A stretch of DNA of 64,000 bases from Pseudomonadota bacterium (lineage in GTDB: Bacteria > Desulfobacterota > JAZDOA01). The notes below the pieces were generated by a model that made no database searches, was not told the origin of the DNA, and was given only the letters and a program-made list of their open reading frames with translations. The stretch lies in contig JAZDOA010000156.1 of the NCBI GenBank assembly GCA_043799175.1, positions 1,242 to 65,241 of the forward strand. The letters run 5' to 3'. Shown piece after piece: positions 1 to 26,418 of the stretch (position 1 is the first letter of the stretch; every line of letters starts with the position of its first letter). The translations under genes were made by a program, and so were the position numbers.

Positions 1-238
1 GATCGGAAGCGCCTGGATCCAGTTTGGCATGCACTACTATCTCTACGCACTCATCTTTCTCGCCTTCGACGTTGAAATACTTTATCTTTTCCCCGTGGCC
101 CTGACCTATAATCGGGGCTTTGTTTTTCGCGATCTGATCGAGGTTGTCATCTTCGTGGGTATTCTGGCCCTGGCCATTGTTTATGCCTGGAAAGAAGGAG
201 TCTTCGAGTGGGGAAGAACGTCGGTACAGCCCCGATAG
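1..238 (+). CDS. nuoA: NADH-quinone oxidoreductase subunit A (5' end lies upstream of the window)
   Basis: C-terminal NuoA/ND3-like sequence ([15 protein letters not shown]...), directly followed by nuoB. Confidence 0.75.
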
Positions 239-729
239 TCCAGCTCGGTGTCGTTGAAGATCTCATCAACCTGGCCCGGGCCAACTCGCTGTGGCCGATG
301 ACCTTCGGTCTGGCCTGCTGCGCGATAGAAATGATGGCCGCCGGCGCCGCCCGCTTCGACCTTGACCGCTTTGGCGCCGGGGTGTTTCGTCCATCTCCCC
401 GCCAGTCCGACGTCATGATCGTGGCCGGCACCATATCCAAGAAGATGGCTCCAGCCATTGTCCGTCTGTGGGATCAGATGCCCGCCCCCAAGTGGTGCAT
501 CGCCATGGGTAATTGCGCCATTTCGGGAGGGCCGTTCGCCTATAAGGGCCAATACGGCATCATCGAGGGCGCCCACCTGATCGTCCCGGTTGATGTCTAC
601 GTCCCCGGTTGTCCGCCCAGGCCCGAAGGATTGATCGAAGGTATTCTCAAGCTTCAAGAGAAGATTGCAGGCCAGCGGCGCTTCCCATTGGCCGAGGGGG
701 CGAAGAAGCGTTCATGGCGTGCCGCTTAA
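208..729 (+). CDS. nuoB: NADH-quinone oxidoreductase subunit B (PSST, Fe-S N2)
   Basis: Contains [17 protein letters not shown] and CPPRPE motifs typical of NuoB; start codon uncertain (overlaps nuoA by 31 nt). Confidence 0.9.
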
Positions 730-751
730 GCTGACTCTGTGAGGAAGGCTC

Positions 752-1189
752 ATGTCTGTCGAAGAACTGAAGTCCGCGATTGATGAGAGGCTGGGCGCGG
801 GTGCCGCCGCCGCCACCGACTACGCCGCCAGGGGCTATCATGTCGAAGTACGCATGAACCCCGCCCAAGTCGTTCCCCTGGCGGAGGCCATGAACTCCTC
901 GGGTCTCTATCTCGAGGACGTAACCGCCGTTGATTGGCTCGCCGACGGCCAGATGGACATTCTGTACCACTACGCTTCCTTTTCGGAGTCGCTCCGGGTG
1001 GCCGGGCGCTGCGCGATAAGCCGTTTCGGGGGGAATGTCCCGAGCATCTGCGGCATATATCAGGGCGCCAACTGGCATGAGCGGGAGGTTTTCGACCTGT
1101 TCGGCGTGGGATTCACGGGTCACCCCGACCTCAAGAGGATACTCCTGCCTGACGATGCGGACTTCCACCCGCTGCGGAAGGACTTCTAG
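752..1189 (+). CDS. nuoC: NADH-quinone oxidoreductase subunit C (30 kDa)
   Basis: NuoC-like sequence (GANWHEREVFDLFGV), positioned between nuoB and nuoD. Confidence 0.85.
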   Translation: MSVEELKSAIDERLGAGAAAATDYAARGYHVEVRMNPAQVVPLAEAMNSSGLYLEDVTAVDWLADGQMDILYHYASFSESLRVAGRCAISRFGGNVPSICGIYQGANWHEREVFDLFGVGFTGHPDLKRILLPDDADFHPLRKDF

Positions 1190-1192
1190 CAA

Positions 1193-2311
1193 ATGTACGA
1201 GCTGGCCAAGGGTCTGGAAGAGACCACGTTCTATCTGAACATGGGGCCGCAGCACCCCTCCACGCACGGGGTGCTGCGTATTGTCCTCAGGCTGGACGGG
1301 GAGTACGTGGTGGAGGCCGAGCCGGTGTTGGGCTACATCCACCGCATGCAAGAGAAGATGGCCGAGAACCGCAACTATATTCAGTTTCTCCCTAATCTCG
1401 GCCGGTTGGACTATCTCTCGGCCATGCTCTACAACCACGGTTATTGCGGCGCCGTGGAAAAGCTCATGCAAATAGAGGTTCCGCCCCGGGCCGAGTATAT
1501 CAGAGTCATAACGGCGGAGCTTTCCCGCATCTCCAGCCACCTTCTCTGGGCCGGCGCCTACCTGATGGACCTCGGGGCGTTCACGCCCTTTCTCTATGCC
1601 TTTGACGATCGGGAAAACCTCCTCGACTTGCTGGAAAACGTCTGTGGGTCGCGTCTCACGTACTGCTATTTTCGCTTCGGAGGCGTCTGCAATGACGTCT
1701 CGCCGGAGTTTCTCAAGGGCACCGAGAAGTTTGTCCACAGACTCCGCTCCCGGATTCCCATGTATCACGACCTGGTGACCGGCAACGTCATCTTCGTCCA
1801 TCGCACCAAGGGGGTCGGGGTCATAAGCCAGGACTGCTGCAAGCGCTTTGGGGCGAGCGGCCCGGTGGCCCGCGGCAGCGGCATCAAACACGACGTCCGC
1901 AAGAACGAGCCTTACTCCATCTACGACCAGTTCAGCTTCGAGATTCCCGTGGGCACCGGGAGCGGTGACGCCCTGGACCGCTACCACGTGCGTATGGCCG
2001 AGATAGAGCAGAGCCTGAACATCATCGAGCAGGCCCTGTCGCGCATCCCAGAAGGGCCGGTGAAGAGCAAGCTGCCCAAGAAACTGAAGCCGCCGGTGGG
2101 TGACGTCTACTTCGCGGTCGAGACGGCCCGCGGTGAGTTCGGCACCTACATAGTCAGCGACGGATCGGACGTTCCCTACCGGATCAAGCTGAGGACGCCG
2201 TCATACTCGAACCTCAGCCTGCTTCCGGAGATACTTCCGGGCACCATGATGGCGGACACCGTGTCCATTTTGGGCAGTGTCGACGTGGTTATCCCCGAGA
2301 TAGACAGGTAG
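1193..2311 (+). CDS. nuoD: NADH-quinone oxidoreductase subunit D (49 kDa)
   Basis: NuoD/NiFe-hydrogenase large-subunit-like motif ([16 protein letters not shown]) and C-terminal region; 372 aa. Confidence 0.9.
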
Positions 2312-2315
2312 AGCC

Positions 2316-3308
2316 ATGCCGCAACTACATCCCTTAGGTTTGACGACGTTTCTTCAGGCGGACCTGGCGAACATTCTTCTGGGGGTCCTGCTGATCCTCG
2401 GTTTTGTGCAGGTCAACGCCTTAATCCTCGTCTGGCTGGAGCGGAAGGTGGCCGCCCACATGCAACTGCGGCTTGGCCCGATGGAAGTCGGCCCCCACGG
2501 TCTGCTCCAGACCCTCGCCGACGGCATCAAGCTGATCGGCAAGGAGCTCATAACCCCGAAGGCCGCGGACAAGCCGCTCTTCTGGCTGGCCCCGATTCTG
2601 GTCTTCATGCCGGTGCTGGTCGCGTTCGTGGTGGTGCCGTTCGCGGAGGGCTGGATAGTCAGGGACCTCAACGTGGGCGTCATCCTTATTTTTGCCTTTG
2701 CCACCCTGACCACGCTTTCCATCCTGATGGCCGGCTGGGGCTCCAACAACAAGTACGCCCTCCTGGGGGCGGCCAGGTCGGTGGCCCAGAGCATAGCCTA
2801 CGAGATACCGATGCTCCTGGCGGTGGTCCCGGTGGTAATGATAGCCGGTTCCCTTCGGCTCACCGACATCGTCAAGGCGCAAGGTCCCCTGCCGTTCGTG
2901 GTGATGCAGCCGCTGGCCTTCCTGATCTACCTCGTCGCCGGCGTGGCCGAGACCAACCGCGCCCCCTTCGATCTGCCCGAAGCCGAGTCGGAGCTGGTGG
3001 CCGGCTTCCACACGGAGTACAGCGGCATGCGCTTCGCGCTGTTCTTCCTGGCCGAATACTCCAATATGTTCATTGTCTCGGCGGTGGCCACCTGCCTGTT
3101 CCTGGGCGGTTGGAAGGGCCCCTTGCTCCCCGGTATCGCCTGGTTCTTCATCAAGGCCTACGCCCTGGTCTTCTTGCTTATGTGGTTCCGCTGGACGTTC
3201 CCGCGGGTGCGCTTCGACCAGCTCATGAACTTCTGCTGGAAGGTGCTTATTCCCCTCGCCTTGGTCAACCTCGTCGCCACTGCTTTGTTCCTCAAGGTGC
3301 ATATATGA
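2316..3308 (+). CDS. nuoH: NADH-quinone oxidoreductase subunit H (membrane, ND1)
   Basis: NuoH signature ([16 protein letters not shown]) and polytopic membrane protein; follows nuoD directly with no nuoEFG in between. Confidence 0.9.
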
Positions 3309-3775
3309 GCGGATACCTCGAAGACATCGTTTCGGGTGCCAGGAGCCTGCTCGTCGGCATGGGGGTGACCATCCGCTATATGGTCAAGCCCGTGACCACC
3401 TGCCAGTATCCCCGCGAGACGATCAACGTTACCCCCAACTTCCGGGGACACATAGAGCTGGTGCCCGACGAGGGCGGTGGAAACAAGTGCATTGTGTGCG
3501 GCTCCTGCGAGCGCATGTGTCCCTCGCAACTCATCAGCCTCAAGGGGGAGCGGCCCAAGACACCGCCGCCCGCCGAGGGTGAGAAGCCGAAGCCGGCCAA
3601 GAAAGAGCTGGTGGAGTACACCATTGATTTTACGAGGTGCAGTCTCTGCGGGCTGTGCGTCGAGAGTTGCCCGGTTGACGCGATCCGATTCTCGGCCAAC
3701 TACAATCTGGCTGGGTTCACCAGGGAGGAGTTCCACCTCGATCTGCTGCAAAGGCTCAGGGAGGAGGCGGCATGA
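3305..3775 (+). CDS. nuoI: NADH-quinone oxidoreductase subunit I (2x[4Fe-4S])
   Basis: Two CxxCxxCxxxCP ferredoxin motifs ([12 protein letters not shown] and [12 protein letters not shown]); ATG at 3305 overlaps the nuoH stop (ATGA), so the upstream part of the ORF-track frame from 3110 is read-through. Confidence 0.85.
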
Positions 3776-4281
3776 ATATCGACGGTAAGCTGGTGGCCGA
3801 CGGCGCCTTTCTTGGGGTAGTGGCGCTGGTCTTCGGTGGGGCGCTGATAGCCGTGCTGGCCCAGAACATTCTGCACGCCGTGCTCGGGCTCGTAGTCTCC
3901 TTCTTCGGGGTGGCCGGCCTATACGTCTACCTGGGAAGCGGTTTCGTGGCCGCAATGCAGATCCTCATCTACGTCGGCGCGGTCTGCATAGCCATTATGT
4001 TCGCCATCATGCTTTCGGAGCCGCTCTACAAGCCGGCGGCGATGCCGGATCCCATGAAAGTAGGGCTTTCCGCCGGCATGGCGGCCCTGATATTCGGCGT
4101 CATAGCGATGCTGGTCCTGAGAACCCATTGGGTGAAGGCGGCCCCAACCAGCAACGACTGGAGCATGACGGCGGTGGGGCAGTCCCTGCTCACTCACTAT
4201 GTAGTGGTCTTCGAATTGATCTCCGTGGTGCTGCTGGTGGCCATCATCGGTGCGATGACCACCGCCAGAAGGATGCGCTGA
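3772..4281 (+). CDS. nuoJ: NADH-quinone oxidoreductase subunit J (membrane)
   Basis: Hydrophobic NuoJ-like protein in the conserved operon position. Confidence 0.8.
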   Translation: MNIDGKLVADGAFLGVVALVFGGALIAVLAQNILHAVLGLVVSFFGVAGLYVYLGSGFVAAMQILIYVGAVCIAIMFAIMLSEPLYKPAAMPDPMKVGLSAGMAALIFGVIAMLVLRTHWVKAAPTSNDWSMTAVGQSLLTHYVVVFELISVVLLVAIIGAMTTARRMR

Positions 4282-4592
4282 TGTACCAGGAACTGATGAC
4301 TTATCTGCTGATCGCGGCCGGGCTCTTCGCCCTGGGGCTTTTTGGGGCGCTCTATCGCAGCTCATTGATCGGCCTGCTCATCTCGATCGAGCTGATGTTA
4401 AACGCCGCCGGCATAAATTTCATGGCATTCAACCGCTTCCTGGGGCCGGACCCCGCGGTGGGCCAGGTCTTCACTTTGTTCATCATGGGTATCGCGGCGG
4501 CGGAGGCGGCCATCGCCCTCTCCATCATCGTGGCGGTGTACAAGCGGCTGCGCACAATCAACATCGAACAGGCAAGTGATCTGAGGGGATAG
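4281..4592 (+). CDS. nuoK: NADH-quinone oxidoreductase subunit K (membrane, ND4L)
   Basis: Internal ATG at 4281 (MYQELMTYLLIAAGLF...) overlapping the nuoJ stop (TGATG); about 100-aa NuoK with ELMLNAAGINF motif. The ORF-track N-terminus (4128 onward) is an out-of-gene extension. Confidence 0.85.
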   Translation: MYQELMTYLLIAAGLFALGLFGALYRSSLIGLLISIELMLNAAGINFMAFNRFLGPDPAVGQVFTLFIMGIAAAEAAIALSIIVAVYKRLRTINIEQASDLRG

Positions 4593-4595
4593 GGC

Positions 4596-6593
4596 ATGGA
4601 CTGGAACAACCCGAACTTCATAGCCGCGGCAACGGTATCGGCGGTTCCGCTGATATGCTTCCTTATCATCTTTATTTTCACGCGGAACAATCACAAGCTT
4701 TCCTACTGCATCTCGATCACCGGCGCCCTGGCATGTATGCTTTCGGGTTGGTATCTCCTGGCCAACAACTGGTCGGCCCAGAAGCCCCTGGTCTTCAGCG
4801 TGCCGTGGCTCACCTCCGGAGAGTTTATCCGCATACCCTTCGGGTTCCTGCTCGATCCCCTTAGCCTGCTGATGCTGACAATCGTGGTCACGATCGTCTT
4901 CCTGGTGCAGGTCTACTCCGTGGGCTACATGGCGGGCGACCCAGGAATGGGACGGTACTTCTCCTTTCTGTCCCTGTTCTCCTGGTCAATGACGAATCTG
5001 GTCATAGCCCCGGAGCTGATCCAACTATACGTCTTCTGGGAGCTGGTCGGTCTCTCATCCTACCTGCTGATCGGCTTCTGGTATGAGAAATGGTCGGCGT
5101 CGCAGGCGGGCAAGAAGGCCTTCGTGGTCACCCGCATCGGGGACGTGGGCATGTTCCTGGGGCTGGCCATCATCATTCTGAGTCCGGGGATCCACACCCT
5201 CGATATTCTGAAGCTGAATTCCCCCGGAACGGCGGCGGCGCTTGGGCCGGGGTTGTTGACGCTCTCGGCGATACTGGTCTTCACGGGCAGCATTGGCAAG
5301 AGCGCCCAGTTCCCGCTGCACGTCTGGCTGCCCGATGCCATGGAGGGCCCGACGCCGGTCAGTTCGGTGTTGCATTCGGCTACCATGGTGGCCGCGGGCG
5401 TCTACCTGCTGGCCCGCATCTTCCCCTTCTACAGCCAATCGGCCGACGCCATGTTCTTTGCGCTGAGTATCGGCACCATCACCATGCTGCTGGCCTCGAC
5501 CATGGGCATGGTGGCCACCGATATAAAGCAGGTCTGGGCGTACTCCACGATCTCCCAGCTCGGCTTCATGATAATGGGTCTGGCCGCGGGCGCTTACGCG
5601 GCGGGCGTCTTTCACCTGACCACCCACGCGGCGTTCAAGTGCCTGCTGTTCAACGCGGCGGGCGCACTTATTCATACATATCATACCAATGATTTCTTCG
5701 TGATGTCCGAGAAGGGCGCGAAGGGGCAGCGAGTGCCGGTCATTACCATGACCGTGGCCGCGTGTGCCCTGGCCGGCCTGCCGTTCACGGCGGGGTTCTT
5801 CAGCAAGGAGGCGATCATCGCGGGCCTGGAGAGGCTTGACAACCCGTTCTGGCTCATCGCGGGCCTGGTGGGCGCGGGCATGACCGCCTACTACACCTTC
5901 CGGGTCATATTCGTTCTATGGCGGCCCTCGAGCGAGGTGGTCGGCTACGCCGCCCCGGTCATGGCCCGCGATCTCCACGCGGCACATGCTGGCCACGACG
6001 AGCATCATCATGGCACGCCCGCGGTCATGGCCTTCCCGCTGATATTCCTGGCCACGCTCTCAATCGTCCTGGGCTACGTCGGTCAACCGCTGCAGAGGTT
6101 CCTGCTGCGGGACAAGGCCGTTGTCTGGTCGCTCGAGCGCTTGGGTCTCATGGGCGGTCATGGCGAGCACGCGGCTCACGGCGGGGGCCTGCTGGCCGCC
6201 CTGGGCGTTCACCTCACCCCCATGCTTTTCATGGCCATCGGGGTTGCGCTGAGTGGGGTGATCTGGGCCTGGTACGACTGGGGTCGCAAGGGCTGCAAGC
6301 GGGTTGGCTTCCTGCACGCCTGCGAGCCGCTGGAGGAGCTCTTTCGCCGCCGTTGGTACATAGATGATTTCTATCGCTGGCTGATAGACCGCGTTCTCTA
6401 CGGTACCTTCAGCCGCGCCTGTATCATGCACGACCGTCGGGTCATCGACAGCGGCGTCGATGGTGTGGTGGGTCTGACTGTCGGGGGCGGCAGGGTTCTG
6501 TCCTTCCTGCAGTCCGGGATGGTGCAGTACAACATGCTGATAGCCTTTGCCGTGGTGGGCCTTATCGGTCTTTATTTTCTCTTTGGTTGTTAA
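4596..6593 (+). CDS. nuoL: NADH-quinone oxidoreductase subunit L (antiporter-like, ND5)
   Basis: 665-aa polytopic protein with NuoL/Mrp antiporter motifs (GKSAQFPLHVWLPDAMEGPTPVS). Confidence 0.9.
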   Translation: MDWNNPNFIAAATVSAVPLICFLIIFIFTRNNHKLSYCISITGALACMLSGWYLLANNWSAQKPLVFSVPWLTSGEFIRIPFGFLLDPLSLLMLTIVVTIVFLVQVYSVGYMAGDPGMGRYFSFLSLFSWSMTNLVIAPELIQLYVFWELVGLSSYLLIGFWYEKWSASQAGKKAFVVTRIGDVGMFLGLAIIILSPGIHTLDILKLNSPGTAAALGPGLLTLSAILVFTGSIGKSAQFPLHVWLPDAMEGPTPVSSVLHSATMVAAGVYLLARIFPFYSQSADAMFFALSIGTITMLLASTMGMVATDIKQVWAYSTISQLGFMIMGLAAGAYAAGVFHLTTHAAFKCLLFNAAGALIHTYHTNDFFVMSEKGAKGQRVPVITMTVAACALAGLPFTAGFFSKEAIIAGLERLDNPFWLIAGLVGAGMTAYYTFRVIFVLWRPSSEVVGYAAPVMARDLHAAHAGHDEHHHGTPAVMAFPLIFLATLSIVLGYVGQPLQRFLLRDKAVVWSLERLGLMGGHGEHAAHGGGLLAALGVHLTPMLFMAIGVALSGVIWAWYDWGRKGCKRVGFLHACEPLEELFRRRWYIDDFYRWLIDRVLYGTFSRACIMHDRRVIDSGVDGVVGLTVGGGRVLSFLQSGMVQYNMLIAFAVVGLIGLYFLFGC

Positions 6594-6619
6594 CGTAACG
6601 GTGCGTCGGAGTTGACCAA

Positions 6620-8101
6620 ATGCCTGTGTTGCTTGCTGATTTTCCGTATCTTACCGTCTCGATCCTCTCGCCCTTGGTGGCACTGATTGTCATCATGCTG
6701 TTGCCGGAGGAGCAGAAGAAGACGATTAAACTGGTGGGAGTCGCCTCGGCGGTCGTCTCGCTCGCGGTATGCCTCTACCTCTATTGGGCCTACGACAGGA
6801 CGGTGGGTGGGATTCAGTTCGCGGAGCGGATGGACTGGATACCCGGTCTGGGTATCAAGTACTTCGTGGGGGTCGATGGCATAAACGCCCCGCTGCTGCT
6901 CCTGAACGGCATCGTCTACCTGACCGGGTGCCTAACCATGTGGGAGCTGGAGCTTCGGGTGAAGGAATACTTCGCCTGGATCGCCGCCCTGGTGGCGGGG
7001 GTCTTCGGGGTATACGCCTCCTTCGACCTGTTCTTCTTCTTCATGTTCTATGAGATCGGCCTGCTGCCGATGTACCTGCTCATCGCCATCTGGGGCTCCA
7101 CCCGCAAAGAGTACGCGGCGATGAAGCTGACCCTCTACCTGCTGGCGGGCAGTACGCTGATCTTCCCCGGACTGCTGGCCCTCTACACTTACTCCCCGAT
7201 CAAAACCTTTGACTGGCTGATCCTGAGCCAACAGCATTTCACGCTGGAGCAGCAGAAGCTGATCTTCGGGCTCCTCTACTTCGGCTTCGGGGTGTTGGCG
7301 GCGATATGGCCGTTCCATACATGGTCGCCGGTCGGGCACGTGGCGGCTCCTACCTCGACCTCGATGCTCCACGCGGGGGTCCTGATGAAGCTGGGCGCCT
7401 TCGGGATCCTGCGGATCGCGATGCAACTGGCCCCCCAGGGTCTGGTATATTGGGCACCCACCATGGCCCTGCTGGCGACGATAGGCATCGTCTACGGCGC
7501 GCTGGCCGGTCTGGCGCAGACGGACCTCAAATATATCATTGGCTACTCGTCGGTCTCGCACATGGGGGTTGTCTGCCTGGGGCTTTCCACTCTCACCGTT
7601 GACGGGATCAACGGGGCCGTGTTCCAGATGTTCGCCCACGGCATAATGACGGCCCTCTTCTTCTCCGCGGTCGGCTACATCTACGACCGGACGCACACCA
7701 GGGAGATCTACGACCTGGGTGGTTTCTCCAAAATAATGCCCGTTGCCTCGGCCTTCTTCATCATTGCCGCCCTCTGCGGGTTGGGCTGCCCGGGGTTTGC
7801 GAGCTTCTGGGCCGAGCTGCTGGTCTTCGTGGCCGCCTTCCAGGTATACCCGGTCAAGGGGGTTTTAGCGGTGTGTGCCCTGGTCATTGCCACGCTGTTC
7901 GCGCTGCGGGTCATCATGAGGACCTTCTACGTGGCGCCAAATCCTAAATTCACGGGGCCCGGCTTCGCGGATGTGGGGCTTTTTCTGGCCAGCCCGCGGA
8001 TCATTCTGGTTGGCACCCTGATCATCTTTGGGTTGTTTCCCCGGCTCATGGTAGACGTCATACAGACTGCGGTTGAACCCTTTGTCCGGACACTGGTTTA
8101 G
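6620..8101 (+). CDS. nuoM: NADH-quinone oxidoreductase subunit M (ND4)
   Basis: 493-aa antiporter-like subunit with the WPFHTWSPVGHVAAPTSTSMLHAG motif. Confidence 0.9.
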   Translation: MPVLLADFPYLTVSILSPLVALIVIMLLPEEQKKTIKLVGVASAVVSLAVCLYLYWAYDRTVGGIQFAERMDWIPGLGIKYFVGVDGINAPLLLLNGIVYLTGCLTMWELELRVKEYFAWIAALVAGVFGVYASFDLFFFFMFYEIGLLPMYLLIAIWGSTRKEYAAMKLTLYLLAGSTLIFPGLLALYTYSPIKTFDWLILSQQHFTLEQQKLIFGLLYFGFGVLAAIWPFHTWSPVGHVAAPTSTSMLHAGVLMKLGAFGILRIAMQLAPQGLVYWAPTMALLATIGIVYGALAGLAQTDLKYIIGYSSVSHMGVVCLGLSTLTVDGINGAVFQMFAHGIMTALFFSAVGYIYDRTHTREIYDLGGFSKIMPVASAFFIIAALCGLGCPGFASFWAELLVFVAAFQVYPVKGVLAVCALVIATLFALRVIMRTFYVAPNPKFTGPGFADVGLFLASPRIILVGTLIIFGLFPRLMVDVIQTAVEPFVRTLV

Positions 8102-8104
8102 ACC

Positions 8105-9517
8105 ATGAACGCAACGGTTTTCCTGCCTGAACTTGCCGTGATGGCCATGGCCCTGCTGATGTTTGTGGTATCCATGGCGAAACCGAACGCTCAGCGTGAC
8201 TTTACCCTGGCCGTCGTCCTGGGGGCCGTGGTGGTCGCGGCGGGGGTGGCGAGCCTGCGGTCCGAGGGGCTGCTCTTCTTCGGTACTTACCGGATTGACA
8301 TCTTCTCCCAGGTCTTCAAGATCGCCCTCGGCGTGGGGTTGCTGCTCGCGATTTCGGTATGTCTTGACTTCAAGGGCGTGGACGAAAACCTGCATGGAGA
8401 GTACTACACCTTCATGGCCACGGGCACTCTGGGCCTGATGATGCTGGTCAGCTCGATGGAACTGCTGACCATGTACGTCGCGCTGGAGCTGTCGTCGTAT
8501 TCGCTCTACGTCATGCTTCCCATGCGGCGGGGGTTCGCGCACGACGCCGAGGCGTCCATCAAGTACGTGCTCTTCGGCGCGGTCTCTTCGTGCATCATGG
8601 TCTTCGGGCTCAGCTTCATCTATGGCCTGACCCACACCACGATGCTCAGCGAGATCATGCCTCAGATACCGGTGCTGGCCTCGCAGCCTCTGGGGCTGGC
8701 GGCGATACTCATGACGATCTGCGGCTTCTTCTTCAAGCTGACGGTGTTTCCGTTCCACGCCTGGGCCCCGGACGTCTATCAGGGCGCGGCCAACGAGACG
8801 GCCACCTTCATTGCCACGGCCCCCAAGGTGGGGGCGGTGGCCCTTCTGCTGCGCCTGGTCACACTGGCCGGGGTTGATGGAGTCGGGCTGGTCAAGGTAC
8901 TCATAATCCTCTCGGTGGCCTCCATGACTTTTGGCAATCTGGTGGCCATCGTCCAGAAAGACCTCAAGCGGATGTTGGCCTATTCATCCATCGCCCACGC
9001 CGGCTATGTGATAATCGGCGTCCTGACGCTGAGCGAACTTGGCTATATGAGTTCGATTTACTACATCTTCGGCTACCTGCTCATGAACTTCGCGGTGTTC
9101 ATGGTAGTGGTCAAGGTGTCTCAGGACGGCGGCAATGTGTCCATCGAGCAGCTTGCGGGGTTGTACAAACGGGCGCCGCTTCTGGCCTTGACCCTCATGC
9201 TTTCGCTGTTCGCTCTGGCGGGCATTCCACCGTCGGTCGGTTTCGTGGGCAAGTGGATGTTATTCACGGCGGCGCTGGAGAAGGGGTATCTGTGGCTGGT
9301 CATCATTGCGGCAGCCAACTCCACCGTGTCGCTGTACTACTATCTGTGCGTGGTGCGGGCGGCCTACTGTATGTCGCCGGGTGACCTGCCGGCGGTGAAA
9401 ATCGACATGCCCACCCGCGTCATGAGCTACGTAATGATCGCCGCGATAGTGGGCGTCGGGGTCGTGCCCGCGCCGCTTATTGAAATGGCCCGGAGTGCCG
9501 CGCGGACCCTGCTGTAG
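8105..9517 (+). CDS. nuoN: NADH-quinone oxidoreductase subunit N (ND2)
   Basis: 470-aa antiporter-like subunit with FPFHAWAPDVYQGA motif; last gene of the nuo operon. Confidence 0.9.
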   Translation: MNATVFLPELAVMAMALLMFVVSMAKPNAQRDFTLAVVLGAVVVAAGVASLRSEGLLFFGTYRIDIFSQVFKIALGVGLLLAISVCLDFKGVDENLHGEYYTFMATGTLGLMMLVSSMELLTMYVALELSSYSLYVMLPMRRGFAHDAEASIKYVLFGAVSSCIMVFGLSFIYGLTHTTMLSEIMPQIPVLASQPLGLAAILMTICGFFFKLTVFPFHAWAPDVYQGAANETATFIATAPKVGAVALLLRLVTLAGVDGVGLVKVLIILSVASMTFGNLVAIVQKDLKRMLAYSSIAHAGYVIIGVLTLSELGYMSSIYYIFGYLLMNFAVFMVVVKVSQDGGNVSIEQLAGLYKRAPLLALTLMLSLFALAGIPPSVGFVGKWMLFTAALEKGYLWLVIIAAANSTVSLYYYLCVVRAAYCMSPGDLPAVKIDMPTRVMSYVMIAAIVGVGVVPAPLIEMARSAARTLL

Positions 9518-9664
9518 ACGTGGGGAAGGGCAGTCCGCGGTCGTTGGATGATGTAATCGGAAAGGTTGGGCGCTGTCGGGCTGAGGGCAAAAGAAGTTCG
9601 CTTCCCGCGGCGCTTTTGATGAGGCAGTTAGCTCTGTTGATGTGAAAGGGGGAGGGGGTACCCG

Positions 9665-10327
9665 ATGCTCCAGGCTCTTTACGGTTACGCGCGTGGCCCG
9701 CTGGCATGGGCAGCCTTCGGTCTGTTCATCGGAGGAATCATCCTGAAGCTGATGAGGCTTTACGCACTCAGCTTAAAGAAGGATCAGGTAATTTATGACC
9801 ATCTGAGCATTTCGTGGGCTTTGCGGTCCATAGTGGCCTATCTGCTGCCCCTGAATCGCTCAGTGGCGAGTAAGCCGATTTTTTCCGCCATTGCATACAT
9901 GTTCCACATCTGTCTCATCGCGGCGCCGCTCTTGGTCATGGCCCACGCGGAACTCATGTACGAGTCCTGGGGCGTCAGCCTGCCCTACATCAAGGATGCC
10001 GTGGTCGATGTCATGGCGGTCGTGGTGATGTTGACCGGTCTGGCGTTACTAGTCAGACGCTTCATCGATCCCACCGTGCGGCTGCTAACGACGCCGACTG
10101 ACATTGCCCTGTTGCTGGCCACGATAGCGCCATTTGCCACGGGGTTCCTAGCGTACCATCAGTTGCTGTTGCCCTATGATCTCGCTATCGTGTTGCACCT
10201 TTTGAGCGCGGAACTCGTTCTGGCGCTGATTCCGTTTACGAAATTGAGCCACTTCGCCCTGTTCTTCGTGACGCGCGGCCTGATCGGCAGCGAGTTCGGA
10301 GGGCGCCGAGCCACGAGAGCTTGGTAG
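9665..10327 (+). CDS. NarI-family membrane cytochrome b (TmcC/HmcE/DsrM/HdrE-like)
   Basis: 220 aa with about five TM helices and conserved His residues; strong SD (GGGGGAGGGGG) 5' of the ATG; followed by an HdrD-like CCG protein. Confidence 0.7.
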   Translation: MLQALYGYARGPLAWAAFGLFIGGIILKLMRLYALSLKKDQVIYDHLSISWALRSIVAYLLPLNRSVASKPIFSAIAYMFHICLIAAPLLVMAHAELMYESWGVSLPYIKDAVVDVMAVVVMLTGLALLVRRFIDPTVRLLTTPTDIALLLATIAPFATGFLAYHQLLLPYDLAIVLHLLSAELVLALIPFTKLSHFALFFVTRGLIGSEFGGRRATRAW

Positions 10328-10348
10328 CGGTCGGTTGAGGAGGGACCC

Positions 10349-11656
10349 ATGGTTGACATAAGCAGATTTGGGGTGAAGGTGCCGGAACAGCCCGACCTTC
10401 CCAAACTCAAGAGTATTCTCGGGGCTCAGAATCACGCCCGGATGAAAATGTGGTTGGAAATCTGTACCCGTTGCGGCATGTGCGCGGACTCCTGCTTCTT
10501 TTATCTGGCGCACGACCGCAAACCGGAGTTCGCCCCGGCCTGGAAGGTCCAGCCACTGCGGAAGCTCTACCGCACGGGGGGCGAGGCCACGCGGGAAGTC
10601 CTGGAGGAGATGTTTCAACGCTCCTTCGCGGAGTGTACGGCCTGCCGCCGCTGCTCCCAGTACTGCCCGTTCGGAATTGACATCGCGACCATGGTCAGCG
10701 TTCAGCGGGCCATGCTGACGGCCCTCGATATGACCCCTTCAGGGCTTAAAATCTCCTGTGAGAACTATCTGACCCACGGGAACCAGATGGCGGTCACCGA
10801 GGAAGACTGGGTCGAGACCTGCATCTGGATGGAAGAGGAGACGGCGGCCGAGCTGCCGGGCCTTAAGATCCCCATGGACAAGAAGGGCGCCCGCATCATG
10901 TACACGGTCAACGCCCGGGAGCCCAAGTTCTATCCTCAGGACATCGCCATGGCGGCCAAGGTCTTTCACCTGGTCGGCGAGGACTGGACGATGCCCTCGA
11001 CTGGCTGGGATGACACCAACCTGGCCATGTTCGCGGGGCACCCAAAGGCCGCTGCCCGCGTGACCAAGCTGCTTTACGACAAGGCCGTGGAGTTGGGGGT
11101 CGAGGCCATAGCAATCACCGAATGCGGCCACGCGTACCGTTCGGTGGCCTTCGAGGGACCCTACTTCCTGGGCCTTCCGGGCGGGAAGCCGCCGGTCCCG
11201 GTCATCCACTCGGTGCAGCTCTTCTATGAGTATGTCCGCGACGGAAGGCTGAAGCTGGACAAGACCAAGATCACCGATCCCGTGACGTATCAGGACCCCT
11301 GCAACGTCTCGCGCAACGGCGGTCTCTGTGAGGAGCCTCGCTTCATACTGGATCAGCTCGTCACCAATTTTGTGGACATGCAGCCCAACCGCGAACACAA
11401 CTTCTGCTGTGGCGGCGGCGGCGGCTTTATTCCCATGGGGCCGCCCTTCAGGCGGCTGCGAATGGAATCCGGCAAGATTAAGGCCGAGCAGATTCGCGAG
11501 ACTGGGGCCAAGATCGCCTGCGTGCCGTGTCATAACTGCTATGACCAGATCGGCGATCTCAACAAGGAGTACAAACTCGGCATCAAGGTGGAGTCCTTCA
11601 AGGAGCTGTTCGAGAAGGCCGCCATCGTGCCCGAGCATATGAAACCCAAGGAATAG
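10349..11656 (+). CDS. HdrD-like iron-sulfur CCG-domain protein (TmcB/HmcF/DsrK-like)
   Basis: CxxCxxCxxxCP motifs (CTRCGMCADSC and CTACRRCSQYCP) plus Cys-rich CCG-type motifs (FCCGGGGG and CVPCHNC); 435 aa. Confidence 0.75.
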   Translation: MVDISRFGVKVPEQPDLPKLKSILGAQNHARMKMWLEICTRCGMCADSCFFYLAHDRKPEFAPAWKVQPLRKLYRTGGEATREVLEEMFQRSFAECTACRRCSQYCPFGIDIATMVSVQRAMLTALDMTPSGLKISCENYLTHGNQMAVTEEDWVETCIWMEEETAAELPGLKIPMDKKGARIMYTVNAREPKFYPQDIAMAAKVFHLVGEDWTMPSTGWDDTNLAMFAGHPKAAARVTKLLYDKAVELGVEAIAITECGHAYRSVAFEGPYFLGLPGGKPPVPVIHSVQLFYEYVRDGRLKLDKTKITDPVTYQDPCNVSRNGGLCEEPRFILDQLVTNFVDMQPNREHNFCCGGGGGFIPMGPPFRRLRMESGKIKAEQIRETGAKIACVPCHNCYDQIGDLNKEYKLGIKVESFKELFEKAAIVPEHMKPKE

Positions 11657-11686
11657 GGCGCGGAGCCAGCCGAAGGAGACGACACA

Positions 11687-12094
11687 ATGGGAAAAAAGGT
11701 CTATATAGCTCTCGCCGCGCTTGCGCTGACCGTAGGTTTTTTTTGGAGCGCGGTCGTCATGGCTCAGGGACATGTGACGCTGAGCCTGGCCGCGCAAGGA
11801 CTCAGCGAACGGGCGCCCGTCGAATTCGATCACGAGTCGCACCTCGCGGCTCTGGGAGACGAGTCATGCGGCCAGTGTCACCACGCGCTGCACGGCGGCG
11901 GGTTGGGCTACGAGCCCGGCGATGAAGAAAAGGCCTGCGCGGATTGCCACAAGGTGGAGGCCGTGGGCAAACGTCCAGCACTCATGCGGGCCTATCATTC
12001 CAATTGCGAGGGTTGCCACGCCAGGGACCGGAAGTCTTACAAAGAGACCGGGCCGGTCACCTGCGGCGGCTGCCACGTGAGGGCAACGCACTAA
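11687..12094 (+). CDS. Periplasmic tetraheme cytochrome c3-like protein (TmcA-like)
   Basis: N-terminal signal/anchor, four CxxCH motifs (CGQCHH, CADCH, CEGCH and CGGCH); 135 aa. Confidence 0.75.
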   Translation: MGKKVYIALAALALTVGFFWSAVVMAQGHVTLSLAAQGLSERAPVEFDHESHLAALGDESCGQCHHALHGGGLGYEPGDEEKACADCHKVEAVGKRPALMRAYHSNCEGCHARDRKSYKETGPVTCGGCHVRATH

Positions 12095-12116
12095 GGATGT
12101 CAAAACAAGGAGTTGA

Positions 12117-12377
12117 GTGAAAATGGCTGGTCATGACCATCACGGGCCGGTACATCCGCCTGACGGTCTCCTGCGGGATCCCTTTCAGAAGCCAAGGCCC
12201 ATAGAGCAGGAGATGTCCCAGGCGAACCAGATTACTCTCATGGACGACATGACCGACGTCATCAAGGACGGGTCGCGCTGGAAGCTTCAGAACAGCATGC
12301 TGGAGCTTCTGGTCATGATGATGATATGGCTTTCGGAGTTCACGATCTTCATCGCTCTTTCCCAAAGCTATCGTTAG
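12117..12377 (+). CDS. Small hypothetical protein with His-rich N-terminus and hydrophobic C-terminus
   Basis: 86-aa ORF starting 22 nt after the cytochrome c gene (MKMAGHDHHGPVHPP...) with C-terminal TM-like segment LLVMMMIWLSEFTIFIAL; no recognisable family. Confidence 0.4.
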   Translation: MKMAGHDHHGPVHPPDGLLRDPFQKPRPIEQEMSQANQITLMDDMTDVIKDGSRWKLQNSMLELLVMMMIWLSEFTIFIALSQSYR

Positions 12378-12396
12378 CTTTGGTTTCAATATGAGA

Positions 12397-12430
12397 ACGG
12401 GGCGGCCTTCGGGCCGCCCTTTGCTTTTTC
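12397..12430. terminator. Bidirectional rho-independent terminator between convergent genes
   Basis: Perfect 8-bp GC stem GGGCGGCC-TTCG-GGCCGCCC followed by TTTGCTTTTT; T-rich on the opposite strand too. Sits between the small + gene and era (-). Confidence 0.7.
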
Positions 12431-15069: not shown

Positions 15070-15285
15070 GCTTCCTCCGGGACGAGGCGGCCGCTGCCGC
15101 CGTCCGCCGACCAGACAATTAAAGCGCTTCGCTTTTGAGAGGTCAAGCCGGTTGATTTTGTTTACTTGTGCCCGCTGGTTTGCTACGTTCTACAGCTAAT
15201 TCTGATACTGGGGTAATTCCGGTATTCGGCTGCTCCCGATTATTGGGCTGACTCCAATGTGTTTGTTCGTTTGCTGGAGGCGGCG

Positions 15286-16086
15286 ATGGCATGCCAAAAA
15301 AACATGTCGCCCGCGAAGGCGGGCGTGACGGCCCTCAACTATTTATCCGATCGCCTGTTCGAGATCAAACTTTTCTCGCCCGTGGTGGCCTCGGCCGCCA
15401 GGCCGGGGCAGTTTGTCATCCTGCAGGCAACGGCGCGCTCAAGCCGGGTCTCTCTGCCTCTGGCGGGCATAAGTCCCGAGGAGCAGACCATCAGCGTCGT
15501 AATGAGCAGGAGCACGGCGGGGGCGGGCAGCCTCGCGGTTCTGGAGGTCGGGGGCGAGTTGAATGCCCTGATGGGCCCTATCGGGGAACCGTCAGCCATT
15601 CAAGAAGGGGCAGCCTCGGTGCTGCTGGTTGGCGACGGGGCGGAGGCCTTCGGGCTGGCGCCGGTGGCGCGGGCACTAGTGGCCGGGGGCAGCCGTTTGT
15701 CGGGCCTGCTGGCCGGAGATCCGACCGATGCCAGAATACTTGCCGAGCGTCTTGGTTGCGCCGGGTCGTGCAAAACAATCCTTGGTGACGCTCCGCCTCT
15801 CGAGGCGTTGGCCCGACAGATAGACCACGTCGCCCCTGCGCTGATACTGGCCGCCGGGTCCACTCCATTGCTGCGGGCGGTGCAACAGGCGAGCAAGGAA
15901 AAGGGCGTGGCTGCCCGGCTTCGCCTGAACCCACCCATGCTCGACGGCATCGGGATGTGTGGCGGCTGCCGGCTGAAAATCGGCGGCAGACTGGCCTTCT
16001 GCTGCCTGGAAGGGCCGGAGTTCGAGGCCGCGGCCGTTGATTTCGACTACCTCGAAAGGCGGGAGCGCGCCGGGCGCGTTGCCTGA
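15286..16086 (+). CDS. nfnA: NfnA/SudB/PyrK-like FAD/NAD(P)-binding electron-transfer subunit with C-terminal [2Fe-2S]
   Basis: PyrK-like fold with the C-terminal Cys cluster CGGCRLKIGG...FCCLEGPEF; likely ATG at 15286 preceded by GGAGG (the ORF track starts at a GTG at 15259). Confidence 0.7.
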   Translation: MACQKNMSPAKAGVTALNYLSDRLFEIKLFSPVVASAARPGQFVILQATARSSRVSLPLAGISPEEQTISVVMSRSTAGAGSLAVLEVGGELNALMGPIGEPSAIQEGAASVLLVGDGAEAFGLAPVARALVAGGSRLSGLLAGDPTDARILAERLGCAGSCKTILGDAPPLEALARQIDHVAPALILAAGSTPLLRAVQQASKEKGVAARLRLNPPMLDGIGMCGGCRLKIGGRLAFCCLEGPEFEAAAVDFDYLERRERAGRVA

Positions 16087-16121
16087 AAACAGACCTGACT
16101 TCAGAAGAAACCTGGTAATCC

Positions 16122-17558
16122 ATGGCCATGCCCGAAGCTACGACAAAAAAACCCAAAAATGAGCGCCTGCCGCGACAGGCGATGCCTGAGCAGGACGTCG
16201 GGGTCCGCATACGCAATTTTGACGAGGTTCCGCTGGGCTATTCCGAGGAACTGGCCCAGGCCGAGGCCAGCCGCTGCCTGCGGTGCAAGAAGCCCAGTTG
16301 CATCAAGGGATGCCCGGTCGGCAACCAGATCCCGGCGTTCATCAGCCTGATCCGGGAACGCGACTACCTGGGGGCGATAGCCAAGATTCGGGAAACGAAC
16401 AACCTTCCGGCCGTGTGCGGCAGGGTGTGTCCTCAAGAGGTTCAGTGCGAGGGTCATTGCCGTCTGGGAAAGGTTGACGAGCCCGTGGCCATCGGGCGGC
16501 TGGAAAGATTCGTCGCCGATTATGAACGCTCCCGTGGGAGCAGGATCGTTCCTCGGCCGGAGTCGGCCACCGGGCGTCGGGTGGCCGTGGTGGGAGCGGG
16601 TCCCGCCGGGCTTACGGCGGCCGAAGACCTGGCCCGCGCCGGCCACGACGTCACGGTCTTCGAGGCCATGACCGCGGGGGGCGGGGTGCTGGCCTACGGC
16701 ATACCGGAGTTCTGCCTGCCCAAGGCCATCGTCCGGGCGGAAATAGACTACCTGATGGAACTGGGGGTCCGGTTCGAATACAGCATCCTGATCGGCAAGA
16801 CGCTCTCCGCCGAGTCGCTGGTTCGGGAGGGGCGTTTCCAGGCCGTCTTCCTTGGCATGGGGGCGGGCGTGCCTGGCTTCATGCGCATCTCCGGCGAAGA
16901 GCTGGGTGGCGTGCTCAGTGCCAACGAGTACCTCTTCCGGGCCAATTTCATGAGGGCCGATCGCCACCCGGAGCACGAGACCAGGGTGGTGAGAGGCAGG
17001 CGGGTGGCGGTCATCGGCGGGGGCGACGTGGCCGTGGATGCCGCCCGGCTGGCCTTCCGCCTGGGGGCCGAGGAAGTCACCATCGTCTATCGGCGCTCCG
17101 AGAAAGAAATGCCCGCCCGCAGGGACGAGATACACCATGCCCGCGCCGAGGGCACCAATATCCTTTTCCTCACCACCCCCGTGCGCTATCTGGCCGACGA
17201 CGCCGGCAGGGTGAGGGCCATGGAGTGCATCCGCATGGCCCTTGGCGAGTGCGATGCCTCGGGCCGGGCCCGGCCCTGCCCGGTCGCTGGCTCGGAGTTC
17301 CAGCTTCCGGTGGACGTCGTCGTGGTGGCCATCGGAACGGTGGCAAGCCCCCTGCTGGCCCGGCTGGTTCCAGCCATGGCGGTCAACCGGCGCGGCCTCG
17401 TCATTGCCGATCCCGAAACGGGTGCCACCTCCCGGCCAGGCTTCTATGCCGCCGGCGACGTGGTCACCGGCCCGAAGACCGTGGCCGCGGCCATGGCCGG
17501 AGGCAAAAGGAGCGCGCTTGCCATGCACGCTTACCTCATGCACGAGAGAGGCTACTGA
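16122..17558 (+). CDS. nfnB: NfnB/SudA/GltD-like NADPH-dependent FAD oxidoreductase (glutamate synthase small-subunit family)
   Basis: N-terminal 2x[4Fe-4S] region (CLRCKKPSCIKGCPV...CGRVCPQE) followed by two Rossmann GxGxxG motifs (VAVVGAGPAG and VAVIGGGDVAVD); 478 aa. Confidence 0.8.
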   Translation: MAMPEATTKKPKNERLPRQAMPEQDVGVRIRNFDEVPLGYSEELAQAEASRCLRCKKPSCIKGCPVGNQIPAFISLIRERDYLGAIAKIRETNNLPAVCGRVCPQEVQCEGHCRLGKVDEPVAIGRLERFVADYERSRGSRIVPRPESATGRRVAVVGAGPAGLTAAEDLARAGHDVTVFEAMTAGGGVLAYGIPEFCLPKAIVRAEIDYLMELGVRFEYSILIGKTLSAESLVREGRFQAVFLGMGAGVPGFMRISGEELGGVLSANEYLFRANFMRADRHPEHETRVVRGRRVAVIGGGDVAVDAARLAFRLGAEEVTIVYRRSEKEMPARRDEIHHARAEGTNILFLTTPVRYLADDAGRVRAMECIRMALGECDASGRARPCPVAGSEFQLPVDVVVVAIGTVASPLLARLVPAMAVNRRGLVIADPETGATSRPGFYAAGDVVTGPKTVAAAMAGGKRSALAMHAYLMHERGY

Positions 17559-19661: not shown

Positions 19662-20726
19662 ATGGTTCCGCTCTATATCAGCTCAACCTCGGGCTACTCG
19701 GGCAAGAACCTCGTGACCATGGGAATCGGAGCCCGGCTGAAGAAAGACGGCTACCGCGTGGGTTACATGAAACCGCTGGGCACGGACCCCGTCCGGGTTG
19801 GTGCTACCCTTACGGACGGTGGGGCCAGTTTCCTGCGCGACGCGCTGGGCCTGGCCGACCCTCTGGACCTGATAAGCCCGGTGCTGCTCACCCACGACCT
19901 CAAGGTCAGGGGCTACGGACAGGACATCCCCGGCCTGGAGTCCAGAATTGTCGAGGCCTACCGTCAGCTTTCGGCGGACAAAGACGTAATGCTTCTGGGG
20001 GGGGCGGGCAACATCTACACCGGGGCCTTCCTGGGAATTTCCGGCGCCAAGCTCATCAAGAAGCTGGGGTTGAAGGTCATTCTCATAGACAAGTACGAAG
20101 GTGAGTTCTGTCTGGACTGCATTCTCGCCGCCCGAGACGCCCTGGGCAACAGGCTCATCGGGGTCATCCTCAACGCCGTGACCCAGGAGTACCTCCGGGA
20201 TGTCGAGGATCTCATTGTCGGTTTTCTGCACCGCAAGGGCATAGAGTTCTTCGGAGCACTACCGCAAGACGACGTCCTGGCCTCAATCAAGGTCGAGGAC
20301 CTGGCCGAGCGGCTGCGGGCCAGGATCCTCTGCTGCCACGACAGGCTCGACGGCATGGTGCGGAAGTTCCTCATCGGGGGGATGAACGTCGACAGGTTCC
20401 TGGAGTATTACCGCAAATCCCCTCACAATGCCGTCATAGTCGGCGGGGACCGCTCCGACGTGCAGATGGTCGCGCTGGAAGGCCGCAGCGAGTGCCTCAT
20501 CCTTACTGGAGACTTCTACCCCAGCGACATGATCCTGGCTCGGGCGGAGGAAAGGGGCGTGCCGGTCATGCTGGTGCGCGATGACACATATACGGTCACG
20601 GAGAAAATTCAACGCCTCGGCAGTACCTTGCGCCTCAAGGAACCGGAAAAGGTGCAACGCGCCATTCAGGCGGTCAACAAGCATGTCAATTTCGAAGCGC
20701 TGTATCGTCATCTCGGGCTCAAGTGA
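19662..20726 (+). CDS. Pta N-terminal-like (AAA_26 + DRTGG) domain protein
   Basis: N-terminal dethiobiotin-synthase/CobQ-like P-loop-less nucleotide-binding fold and a DRTGG motif region (VIVGGDRSDVQMVALEGRSECLILTGD); 354 aa. Confidence 0.6.
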   Translation: MVPLYISSTSGYSGKNLVTMGIGARLKKDGYRVGYMKPLGTDPVRVGATLTDGGASFLRDALGLADPLDLISPVLLTHDLKVRGYGQDIPGLESRIVEAYRQLSADKDVMLLGGAGNIYTGAFLGISGAKLIKKLGLKVILIDKYEGEFCLDCILAARDALGNRLIGVILNAVTQEYLRDVEDLIVGFLHRKGIEFFGALPQDDVLASIKVEDLAERLRARILCCHDRLDGMVRKFLIGGMNVDRFLEYYRKSPHNAVIVGGDRSDVQMVALEGRSECLILTGDFYPSDMILARAEERGVPVMLVRDDTYTVTEKIQRLGSTLRLKEPEKVQRAIQAVNKHVNFEALYRHLGLK

Positions 20727-25053: not shown

Positions 25054-25077
25054 AGCACTCGAGGAGGTGATTAACAC

Positions 25078-26151: not shown

Positions 26152-26208
26152 AGGGTTTTTTCAGGCTCCAAGCAGTATGTTTGGAACCCTTTGAGCGGAG
26201 TGAAAGAA

Positions 26209-26418
26209 ATGGCCGATCTGAAGGCAGAGATTATGGTGATTCTTGCTGAGAGTAAGCAAAAGAGAAAGAAGCTGAAGCCAAACGAGGTTGTCAAGAAGGT
26301 CCAGGAAAAGATGGAGATCTCCAAGGAAGACGTAAAGACCGCCATCAAGGAACTGGCCAACGAAGGCAAGATCGTCTACGTATATGCCGGTGGCAGCTTC
26401 GTGGAGCTTCCGTCGTAG
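26209..26418 (+). CDS. dsrD: DsrD (small winged-helix protein of the dsr operon)
   Basis: About 70 aa, Lys-rich, with C-terminal YVYAGGSFVEL resembling DsrD YWSSGSTTMYGL; ATG at 26209 with GGAG SD (the ORF track uses a TTG at 26191). Confidence 0.8.
   Translation: MADLKAEIMVILAESKQKRKKLKPNEVVKKVQEKMEISKEDVKTAIKELANEGKIVYVYAGGSFVELPS

Follow-up and report, generated by a model that had tools for sequence, protein, structure and literature searches.

Does an electron-transfer module that lies directly behind a respiratory complex I operon work together with that complex, or has it simply been inherited in that position? We addressed this question in a 64,000-nucleotide stretch of a Desulfobacterota genome (GenBank assembly GCA_043799175.1, contig JAZDOA010000156.1, positions 1,242 to 65,241; hereafter the window), in which four tightly packed genes lie 3' of nuoN in a complex I (nuo) operon. 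We consider it likely that these genes (tmcC-like, tmcB-like, tmcA-like and a small gene termed here orf84) form a self-contained unit for a transmembrane electron-transfer complex of the Tmc/HmcEF/DsrMK superfamily, which would deliver electrons to DsrC and would be transcribed in part by read-through from nuo. The nuoN gene ends at 9517, 147 nucleotides (nt) before the tmcC-like gene; the gaps within the unit measure 21, 30 and 28 nt, and each gene is preceded by a purine-rich ribosome-binding site. The unit comprises the following features.

9518..9664, plus strand: nuoN-tmcC gap, 147 nt, with no terminator and no recognisable sigma-70 promoter (scans, folding and an eight-member alignment)
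9665..10327, plus strand: predicted TmcC/HmcE-like NarI-family dihaem cytochrome b, 220 amino acids (aa) (NCBIfam, Pfam, invariant His)
10349..11656, plus strand: TmcB/HmcF-like cytoplasmic iron-sulfur protein, 435 aa (Pfam Fer4_8 and CCG; NCBIfam)
11687..12094, plus strand: TmcA-like acidic tetrahaem cytochrome c3, 135 aa (Pfam Cytochrom_CIII; NCBIfam TmcA)
12123..12377, plus strand: orf84, clade-specific 84-aa protein with a His-rich N-terminus MAGHDHHGPVHPPDG, a conserved core and a C-terminal transmembrane helix (residues ~62-80)
12399..12429, plus strand: intrinsic terminator GGGGCGGCC-UUCG-GGCCGCCCU followed by UUUGCUUUUU (terminator scan and fold)

The membrane protein matches Pfam Nitrate_red_gam and shows about five hydrophobic, presumably transmembrane helices in its hydropathy profile. 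Its best NCBIfam match is TmcC (215.7 bits, equivalog cut-off 240), followed by HmcE (168.5 bits, cut-off 275). His81, His94, His178 and His196 are invariant in an alignment of 23 homologues, and the profile of this alignment matches Escherichia coli NarI (1Q16_C) with these residues falling on NarI His56, His66, His187 and His205, which we take to be the haem ligands. Judged by this correspondence, and within the limits of sequence evidence, it is a dihaem cytochrome b of the NarI type with four conserved histidines in helices 2 and 5. The TmcB-like protein has no hydrophobic helix and carries two CxxCxxCxxxC [4Fe-4S] motifs (C39-C49 and C96-C106) and a single CCG domain (C318, C353, C354, C394, C397). 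It scores 476 bits with HmcF (cut-off 750), 431.5 with TmcB (cut-off 735) and 217 with DsrK (cut-off 400), and its AlphaFold2 model (pLDDT 85, pTM 0.87) is structurally closest to Mycobacterium smegmatis EtfD (9OJN, TM-score 0.69 on the query), then to LutA and HdrB. Its ITEC259GH sequence, with Cys259 encoded by TGC at 11123-11125, corresponds to the T/GECGH motif of DsrK, TmcB and HmcF, whose cysteine has been proposed to be essential and catalytic for disulfide reduction (PMC10861901).

The TmcA-like cytochrome has a signal peptide ending VMA-QG, four CxxCH motifs and a mature isoelectric point (pI) of 6.2; its best NCBIfam match is TmcA (96.1 bits, cut-off 114). A sequence search of the PDB returned 3CAO first (2e-17), which we take to be the acidic cytochrome c3 of Desulfovibrio africanus, then domains of 16-haem Hmc cytochromes, with basic c3 proteins far weaker. 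These results bear out the initial annotation, which had read the three genes after nuoN, beyond a gap of about 150 nt, as a NarI-family cytochrome b, an HdrD-like CCG protein with two [4Fe-4S] motifs and a tetrahaem c3-like protein with a signal peptide: the open reading frames (ORFs) are in place, Pfam, NCBIfam and motifs agree, and the haem sites and topology of the cytochrome b are as expected for such a protein.

Downstream, the unit is closed by the terminator (fold -24.3 kcal/mol, z = -2.4), which sits between the convergent orf84 and era; beyond it era and a radical-SAM gene, both on the minus strand, converge on the module. Equivalent hairpins followed by T-runs lie 3' of the small gene in five related loci (L162, L164, L166, L167 and L082). 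Elsewhere in the window we found neither a further module of this kind nor the orphan tmcB locus described below, and an Rfam scan of the window gave no match.

To what family does the module belong? Relatives of the CCG protein were found at 508 loci (one genome per species) and at 281 metagenomic loci, and the best 80 of each set, 160 in all, were examined. The cytochrome b gene lies directly 5' of the CCG gene in nearly all of these, and a TmcA-like c3 gene comes next in about two-thirds, giving C-B-A order, with C-B alone at others. The hosts belong to Syntrophobacteraceae (Syntrophobacterales), Desulfarculaceae (Desulfarculales), Desulfobacterales and Desulfatiglandales, and include the cultured Desulfoferrobacter suflitae, Desulfocarbo indianensis and Desulfacinum infernum. 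The CCG proteins of this C-B-(A) subfamily are 50-64% identical to that of the window, and five others that we scanned repeat its pattern of scores (HmcF ~500-557 bits, TmcB ~410-461, DsrK ~185-212). Rooting a neighbour-joining tree on a true DsrK, that of locus L124, placed the clade of the window within the C-B-(A) family. Since the best scores of the window's proteins are with Tmc and Hmc models yet stay below the equivalog cut-offs, its CCG family is best placed as a sister of TmcB and HmcF and a strict equivalog of neither; this placement relative to the Desulfovibrio vulgaris proteins uses hidden Markov model scores. A DsrMK or HdrDE identity was considered and rejected, the CCG protein reaching less than the DsrK cut-off, against 718 bits for the true DsrK of L124.

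The TmcABC identity given by the initial annotation therefore needs narrowing: the module is of Tmc/Hmc type and its cytochrome c is TmcA-like, but it represents a sister family. The same annotation had called the C-B-A order inverted and had remarked on the lack of TmcD. Both observations were correct, since no tryptophan-rich TmcD gene adjoins the module at this locus (orf84 comes next, then era on the opposite strand); however, the order is inverted only relative to Desulfovibrio tmcABCD, and across the 160 loci both features are the norm for the subfamily and cease to be oddities. The order of a cytochrome b gene followed by a CCG gene also occurs in hmcEF and dsrMK, and it is Desulfovibrio tmcABCD that departs from it. 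Tmc clusters of three genes that lack TmcD are on record as 'TmcBCA' in Desulfobacterium autotrophicum HRM2 (PMC2702500) and as tmcA2B2C2 in Desulfococcus multivorans, 27-35% identical to D. vulgaris (PMC5109826), and a divergent Tmc without TmcA is reported from Seep-SRB1 (PMC10553843). The module is thus of a common, already described Tmc/HmcEF-like kind.

Comparison with individual systems sharpens this picture. With TmcABCD of D. vulgaris Hildenborough (cited in PMC5109826) the module shares the three cofactor-bearing parts, namely an acidic tetrahaem type II c3, a cytochrome b and a single-CCG protein with TECGH; it differs in its sub-cut-off scores with all three Tmc models, in its C-B-A rather than A-B-C-D order, in having an unrelated 84-aa tail-anchored protein in place of TmcD, and in its position behind nuo. 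The modules of Db. autotrophicum (PMC2702500) and D. multivorans (PMC5109826) resemble it, by description rather than by alignment, as three-subunit modules without TmcD, but neither has been reported with a nuo neighbour or a small fourth gene. From HmcABCDEF it has the hmcE-hmcF gene order and HmcF as the top model for the CCG protein, both in the window and in five subfamily members (476 to 557 bits), whereas its HmcF and HmcE scores are below the cut-offs and a four-haem c3 stands in place of the 16-haem HmcA and HmcBCD. DsrMK of DsrMKJOP shares the NarI-type dihaem cytochrome b, the CCG protein with one noncubane-cluster motif, the (T/G)ECGH cysteine and the gene order (PMC10861901), while the window's module has no adjacent DsrJOP and has a c3 subunit. 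EtfD, the best structural match of the TmcB-like model and its sole sequence match in the PDB, is instead one long chain, of 1042 aa according to its PDB sequence file, with 19% identity over the structural alignment and no cytochrome c partner; it presumably has its own membrane domain and acts as an ETF:menaquinone oxidoreductase, oxidising ETF and reducing menaquinone.

The TECGH residue itself proved variable among relatives. In loci L162 (11478), L164 (11472), L166 (3602) and L082 (925) the codon matching Cys259 is an in-frame TGA, beyond which the frame continues unchanged; such a TGA occurs at 52 of 161 family loci, the window having the Cys form. This TGA stands for selenocysteine (Sec). 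About 18 nt 3' of the codon, the TGA loci carry a hairpin with the consensus CCCTTC-GGTTC-GAAGGG and compensatory changes between lineages, and the corresponding stretch is more stable in TGA than in Cys loci (-15.3 vs -12.3 kcal/mol, Mann-Whitney p = 2e-7) despite a lower G+C content. An Rfam search of L164 gave no match to a SECIS family. Gene callers split the Sec-type gene into a ~260-aa Fer4 fragment and a ~150-aa CCG fragment, and this split is an annotation artefact of the TGA codon; its routine occurrence in these selenoprotein genes matters for annotation. The genes so affected, and the Cys-type orphans discussed next, are as follows.

L162 10683-12011; L164 10686-12023; L166 2825-4138; L167 6953-8272: split Sec-type tmcB-like genes
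L081 3339-4646; L161 973-2280: orphan TmcB-like genes, with no tmcC or tmcA beside them

Among Deltaproteobacteria, 'Fe-S oxidoreductase (GlpC)' has been recognised as a selenoprotein family (PMC1794560), and in the literature that we searched we did not find it linked to the TECGH residue. The alternation of Sec and Cys at this position provides independent natural support for the redox-active catalytic role assigned to it in DsrK, TmcB and HmcF (PMC10861901).

The window's CCG protein is 89-90% identical to the two Cys-type orphans and 80-82% identical to its syntenic Sec-type orthologues. As it also agrees with these copies at 28 of the 35 diagnostic sites, the sequences suggest that the window's tmcB-like gene is a gene replacement or a transposed duplicate. 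Judged from translations, the neighbours at the orphan loci are a divergent sigma-54-type PAS/AAA+ activator, ftsZ, a Cys-rich ORF of 72-80 aa and an MBL-fold hydrolase (look-alikes).

We then turn to what lies upstream. Each of the subunits below was identified by an NCBIfam match, and together they form an 11-subunit complex I operon without nuoEFG.

1..9517, plus strand: 11-subunit complex I operon lacking nuoEFG
to 238, plus strand: nuoA, cut by the window start
208-729, plus strand: nuoB
752-1189, plus strand: nuoC
1193-2311, plus strand: nuoD
2316-3308, plus strand: nuoH
3305-3775, plus strand: nuoI, with two CxxCxxCxxxCP motifs
3772-4281, plus strand: nuoJ
4281-4592, plus strand: nuoK, 103 aa
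4596-6593, plus strand: nuoL
6620-8101, plus strand: nuoM
8105-9517, plus strand: nuoN

The genes nuoA, B, C, D, H, I, J, K, L, M and N are contiguous in the window, with no gene between nuoD and nuoH, just as the initial annotation had described, and relatives L162, L164 and L167 have the identical set. The 11-subunit complex I of sulfate reducers (NuoABCDHIJKLMN) has the same subunits and likewise lacks NuoEFG; its assumed partners are given as 'Fd?/MQ' (PMC6491731). The window's operon differs in having a Tmc-like unit downstream with no terminator between the two. A literature search found no report linking nuo and tmc.

How widespread is this arrangement? In the 10 kb of upstream DNA retrieved for the 160 family loci, no nuo gene occurs, so that the position behind nuo is indeed unusual, as had been noted. 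In representative sequences inspected by eye, the neighbours of the C-B-A module at other loci are variable and unrelated (tol genes, ndk, moaC, dksA, acetyl-CoA synthetase, universal stress proteins, two-component systems, and sensor or regulator genes), with no conserved functional neighbour among them. A search with the cytochrome b, by contrast, revealed a small clade in which TmcC is 67-76% identical to that of the window, and nuoN lies directly 5' of tmcC in every clade member with upstream sequence (L162, L163, L164/L165, L166, L167 and L168). The longer contigs of this clade contain the 11-gene nuo operon, the 84-aa gene, era and the radical-SAM gene. The nuo-tmc adjacency is therefore inherited and arose once, in the window's clade. 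The whole 20 kb is collinear in the clade genomes, and the conserved linkage therefore carries no specific functional information. Identities among clade members are 83-91% for Nuo and 57-82% for Tmc proteins.

If position alone is uninformative, the gap between nuoN and tmcC may still reveal whether the two units are transcribed together. No terminator-like hairpin was found in this gap in the window or in the three relatives scanned, and in the window the fold of the gap is no more stable than that of shuffled sequence (z = +0.56). We aligned the gap across eight clade members (the window and seven relatives). The gaps of the relatives span 202-267 nt, that of the window being shorter by 55-120 nt. 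All seven relatives share a near-palindrome, TGCAC(A/G)AAATTnnGT, just 3' of nuoN, and an invariant GTTGACAG-N13-TGnTA (TTGACA-N14-TGnTA) about 100 nt 5' of tmcC; the ribosome-binding site GAAAGGGGG before tmcC is common to them and the window. Conservation is poor in the alignment columns around them (mean identity 50%), so both motifs are under constraint. They lie in the following gap regions.

L162 9786-10000; L164 9789-10000; L166 1942-2143; L167 6005-6271; L168 806-1056; L170 1-240: gap motifs in relatives

The TTGACA/TGnTA element resembles a -35 hexamer with an extended -10, and its simplest reading is a regulated tmc promoter; the near-palindrome may be an operator for some regulator. 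Since the seven relatives keep this promoter-like element, we infer that the nuo and tmc units were ancestrally separate, though unterminated. In the window, however, the near-palindrome is deleted, TTGACA has become TTGGAT with no -10 at the correct spacing, and a motif search found neither motif anywhere in the window. With the promoter-like element lost and no terminator in the gap, the module in the window's lineage probably leans more, at least partly, on read-through from nuo. The initial annotation had suggested transcriptional linkage and had seen no terminator; we recognised neither a terminator nor a promoter-like site between the two units here, and linkage is possible in this genome, whereas the element kept in the seven relatives speaks for two ancestrally separate units.

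The fourth gene is likewise a property of this clade. The initial annotation had reported an 86-aa His-rich, hydrophobic protein; the gene is real and conserved, but its most likely start is the ATG at 12123 (84 aa), as in the orthologues and in the GenBank annotation (hypothetical protein V2A77_08490), rather than the GTG at 12117 that gives 86 aa. The His-rich N-terminus (GHDHHGPxHPPDG) is invariant and followed by one C-terminal hydrophobic helix, and the protein has no Pfam or NCBIfam match. Orthologues with 59-76% identity lie directly after tmcA in L082, L162, L164, L166 and L167, and their differences by codon position follow the order 3 > 1 > 2 (for example, 29 third, 18 first and 8 second). 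These two observations rule out a chance ORF, so that the antisense ORF at 12057-12389 can be dismissed as the gene here. Among 5.8 billion proteins, a profile search recovered 10 clusters only, all at least 61% identical. We also considered a small fourth subunit as a feature of the whole family and rejected it, as no comparable ORF lies 3' of tmcA in 105 other loci. With homologues confined in this way, orf84 is restricted to the clade with the nuo linkage. The most economical guess is that it encodes a fourth subunit, or an accessory or assembly factor, of the module.

Taken together, these features suggest how the complex might work. The periplasmic acidic tetrahaem c3 would exchange electrons with a pool of soluble basic c3 and pass them to the dihaem NarI-type cytochrome b, which would carry them across the membrane to the cytoplasmic protein with its two [4Fe-4S] clusters and one noncubane CCG cluster. 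There, the redox-active Cys259 of TECGH would reduce a disulfide or trisulfide on a protein, for which the trisulfide of DsrC is the likeliest candidate. What the sequences show directly is the gene content, the cofactor-binding motifs, the family placement and the conservation of orf84; which way the electrons run and DsrC as the substrate are deduced from these, and the cytochrome b may also react with menaquinone. That the module is autonomous is indicated by its C-B-A or C-B order being kept in 160 loci among unrelated housekeeping genes, as well as by its short internal gaps and the terminator that closes it. The physiological context comes from genes further along the window.

23845-25053: dsrA, above the NCBIfam equivalog cut-off
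25078-26151: dsrB, above the NCBIfam equivalog cut-off
~26208-26415: dsrD-like ORF, 68 aa
26431-27864: dsrN-like cobyrinic-acid a,c-diamide synthase homologue (amidase)
30077-30532, minus strand: lysine-rich basic c3-type cytochrome, pI 9.3
30582-31052, minus strand: ORF resembling a hydrogenase maturation protease (by eye only)
31477-36341: qrcABCD, all four above the NCBIfam cut-offs

The genes at 23845-27864 form a dissimilatory sulfite reductase cluster, and the dsrD-like ORF suggests the reductive type. Given dsrAB, the dsrD-like and dsrN-like genes, the basic c3 and qrcABCD, the organism is a dissimilatory sulfate or sulfite reducer. The acidic type II and basic type I c3 pair of Desulfovibrio has a counterpart here in the cytochromes of pI 6.2 and pI 9.3. 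Because the host reduces sulfate or sulfite, and by analogy with DsrK, DsrMK(JOP) being a menadiol:DsrC-trisulfide reductase (PMC10861901), and with Tmc, for which 'TpIc3/DsrC' are the customary assumed partners (PMC6491731), the DsrC trisulfide is the most likely acceptor of the CCG protein.

Several points weigh against our reading. All three module proteins score below the equivalog cut-offs, and their function is transferred from relatives that are not close. Direction and substrate are deduced, and the presumed activity of EtfD indicates that a pair of cytochrome b and CCG protein need not reduce DsrC. The 64 kb analysed establish neither a DsrC gene nor the presence or absence of dsrMKJOP. 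The promoter-like element of the relatives was not called by the scanner, its -10 lacking the final T, and both the read-through and the promoter loss are read from the nucleotide sequence.

Other accounts of the locus must be set beside the one that we favour. Nuo, its donor possibly ferredoxin, might reduce menaquinone, with the TmcC/TmcB-like pair acting as a DsrMK-like menaquinol:DsrC-trisulfide reductase, all 15 genes on one transcript and the c3 serving as a side entry, which would complete a chain from ferredoxin through menaquinone to DsrC. The TmcC-like protein is indeed a member of the NarI family, known to react with quinones, and retains the two haem sites, the DsrMK(JOP) precedent is in line with such an activity, the best structural match, EtfD, is presumably menaquinone-linked, the nuoN-tmcC gap has no terminator and has lost the promoter-like element in the window, and the adjacency is kept throughout the clade. 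Yet this adjacency occurs in one clade only, where the entire 20 kb is collinear, nuo and tmc are linked in none of the 160 other loci, the relatives keep a separate promoter-like element, and a quinone site is not readable from the sequence; moreover, the D. vulgaris Tmc is reportedly reduced through cytochrome c3 and not by menadiol. Functional coupling of nuo and tmc through the quinone pool is possible, but as a complete account of the locus we think this regulon unlikely. The complex might also run in reverse, as Hmc is thought to do (PMC5109826), carrying electrons from reduced DsrC or another thiol in the cytoplasm out to cytochromes of the periplasm, for instance when the cells grow by syntrophy or fermentation. 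The higher HmcF than TmcB score of the CCG protein, here and across the subfamily, the hmcE-hmcF gene order and the many family members from syntrophic lineages such as Syntrophobacteraceae would fit, whereas the TmcA and TmcC models fit the cytochrome c and the membrane subunit better than Hmc models do, HmcABCD is absent, and direction is not readable from the sequence; reverse operation thus seems to us distinctly improbable.

We give hardly any credence to a physical supercomplex, in which the Tmc-like module would dock on the 11-subunit complex I, for example through the tail-anchored orf84 protein, and supply or remove electrons in place of NuoEFG. Gene adjacency, the absence of nuoEFG from the operon and a small membrane protein found only in the clade with the adjacency could be cited in its favour; however, there are no fusion proteins, shared subunits or extra domains on Nuo subunits, the differing identities of Nuo and Tmc proteins within the clade show no sign of coupled evolution, and the fold of the TmcB-like protein is that of a thiol/disulfide reductase rather than an input module for NuoB, NuoD or NuoI. 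Furthermore, 11-subunit nuo operons are common in sulfate reducers without a Tmc neighbour. The initial annotation had proposed a supercomplex or regulon from the adjacency of the genes, and we do not uphold this proposal, as the adjacency is kept in one shallow collinear clade whose other members retain the promoter-like element. A bolder scenario, which we hold to be very doubtful, is that nuoA-N and tmcC, tmcB, tmcA and orf84 have merged into one 15-gene operon once the tmc promoter and operator had gone; this would fix the ratio in which complex I and a DsrC reductase dependent on c3 or menaquinol are produced, with orf84 tethering or tuning both, along a route from ferredoxin through menaquinone to DsrC.

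Under the favoured reading, a self-contained Tmc-like unit with partial read-through, what is new is modest: a place behind a nuo operon lacking EFG that one small clade has inherited, a fourth gene confined to that clade, and promoter decay in this genome. A lineage with a putatively DsrC-directed module behind an EFG-less nuo operon, with no terminator between them, is nonetheless a handy test case for co-regulation.

The window contains further genes. The block at 15259-20726 is collinear in L162, L164 and L166, and the labels of its last two ORFs come from Pfam domains of the collinear relatives.

15259-16086 and 16122-17558: NfnAB-like pair
17559-19661: ADP-forming acetyl-CoA synthetase-like ORF
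19662-20726: DRTGG/AAA_26 ORF

Finally, a 487-aa AAA_21/AAA_15 ATPase at 42603-44066, AbiEii-like and unrelated to the module, may be a defence or toxin-antitoxin component.

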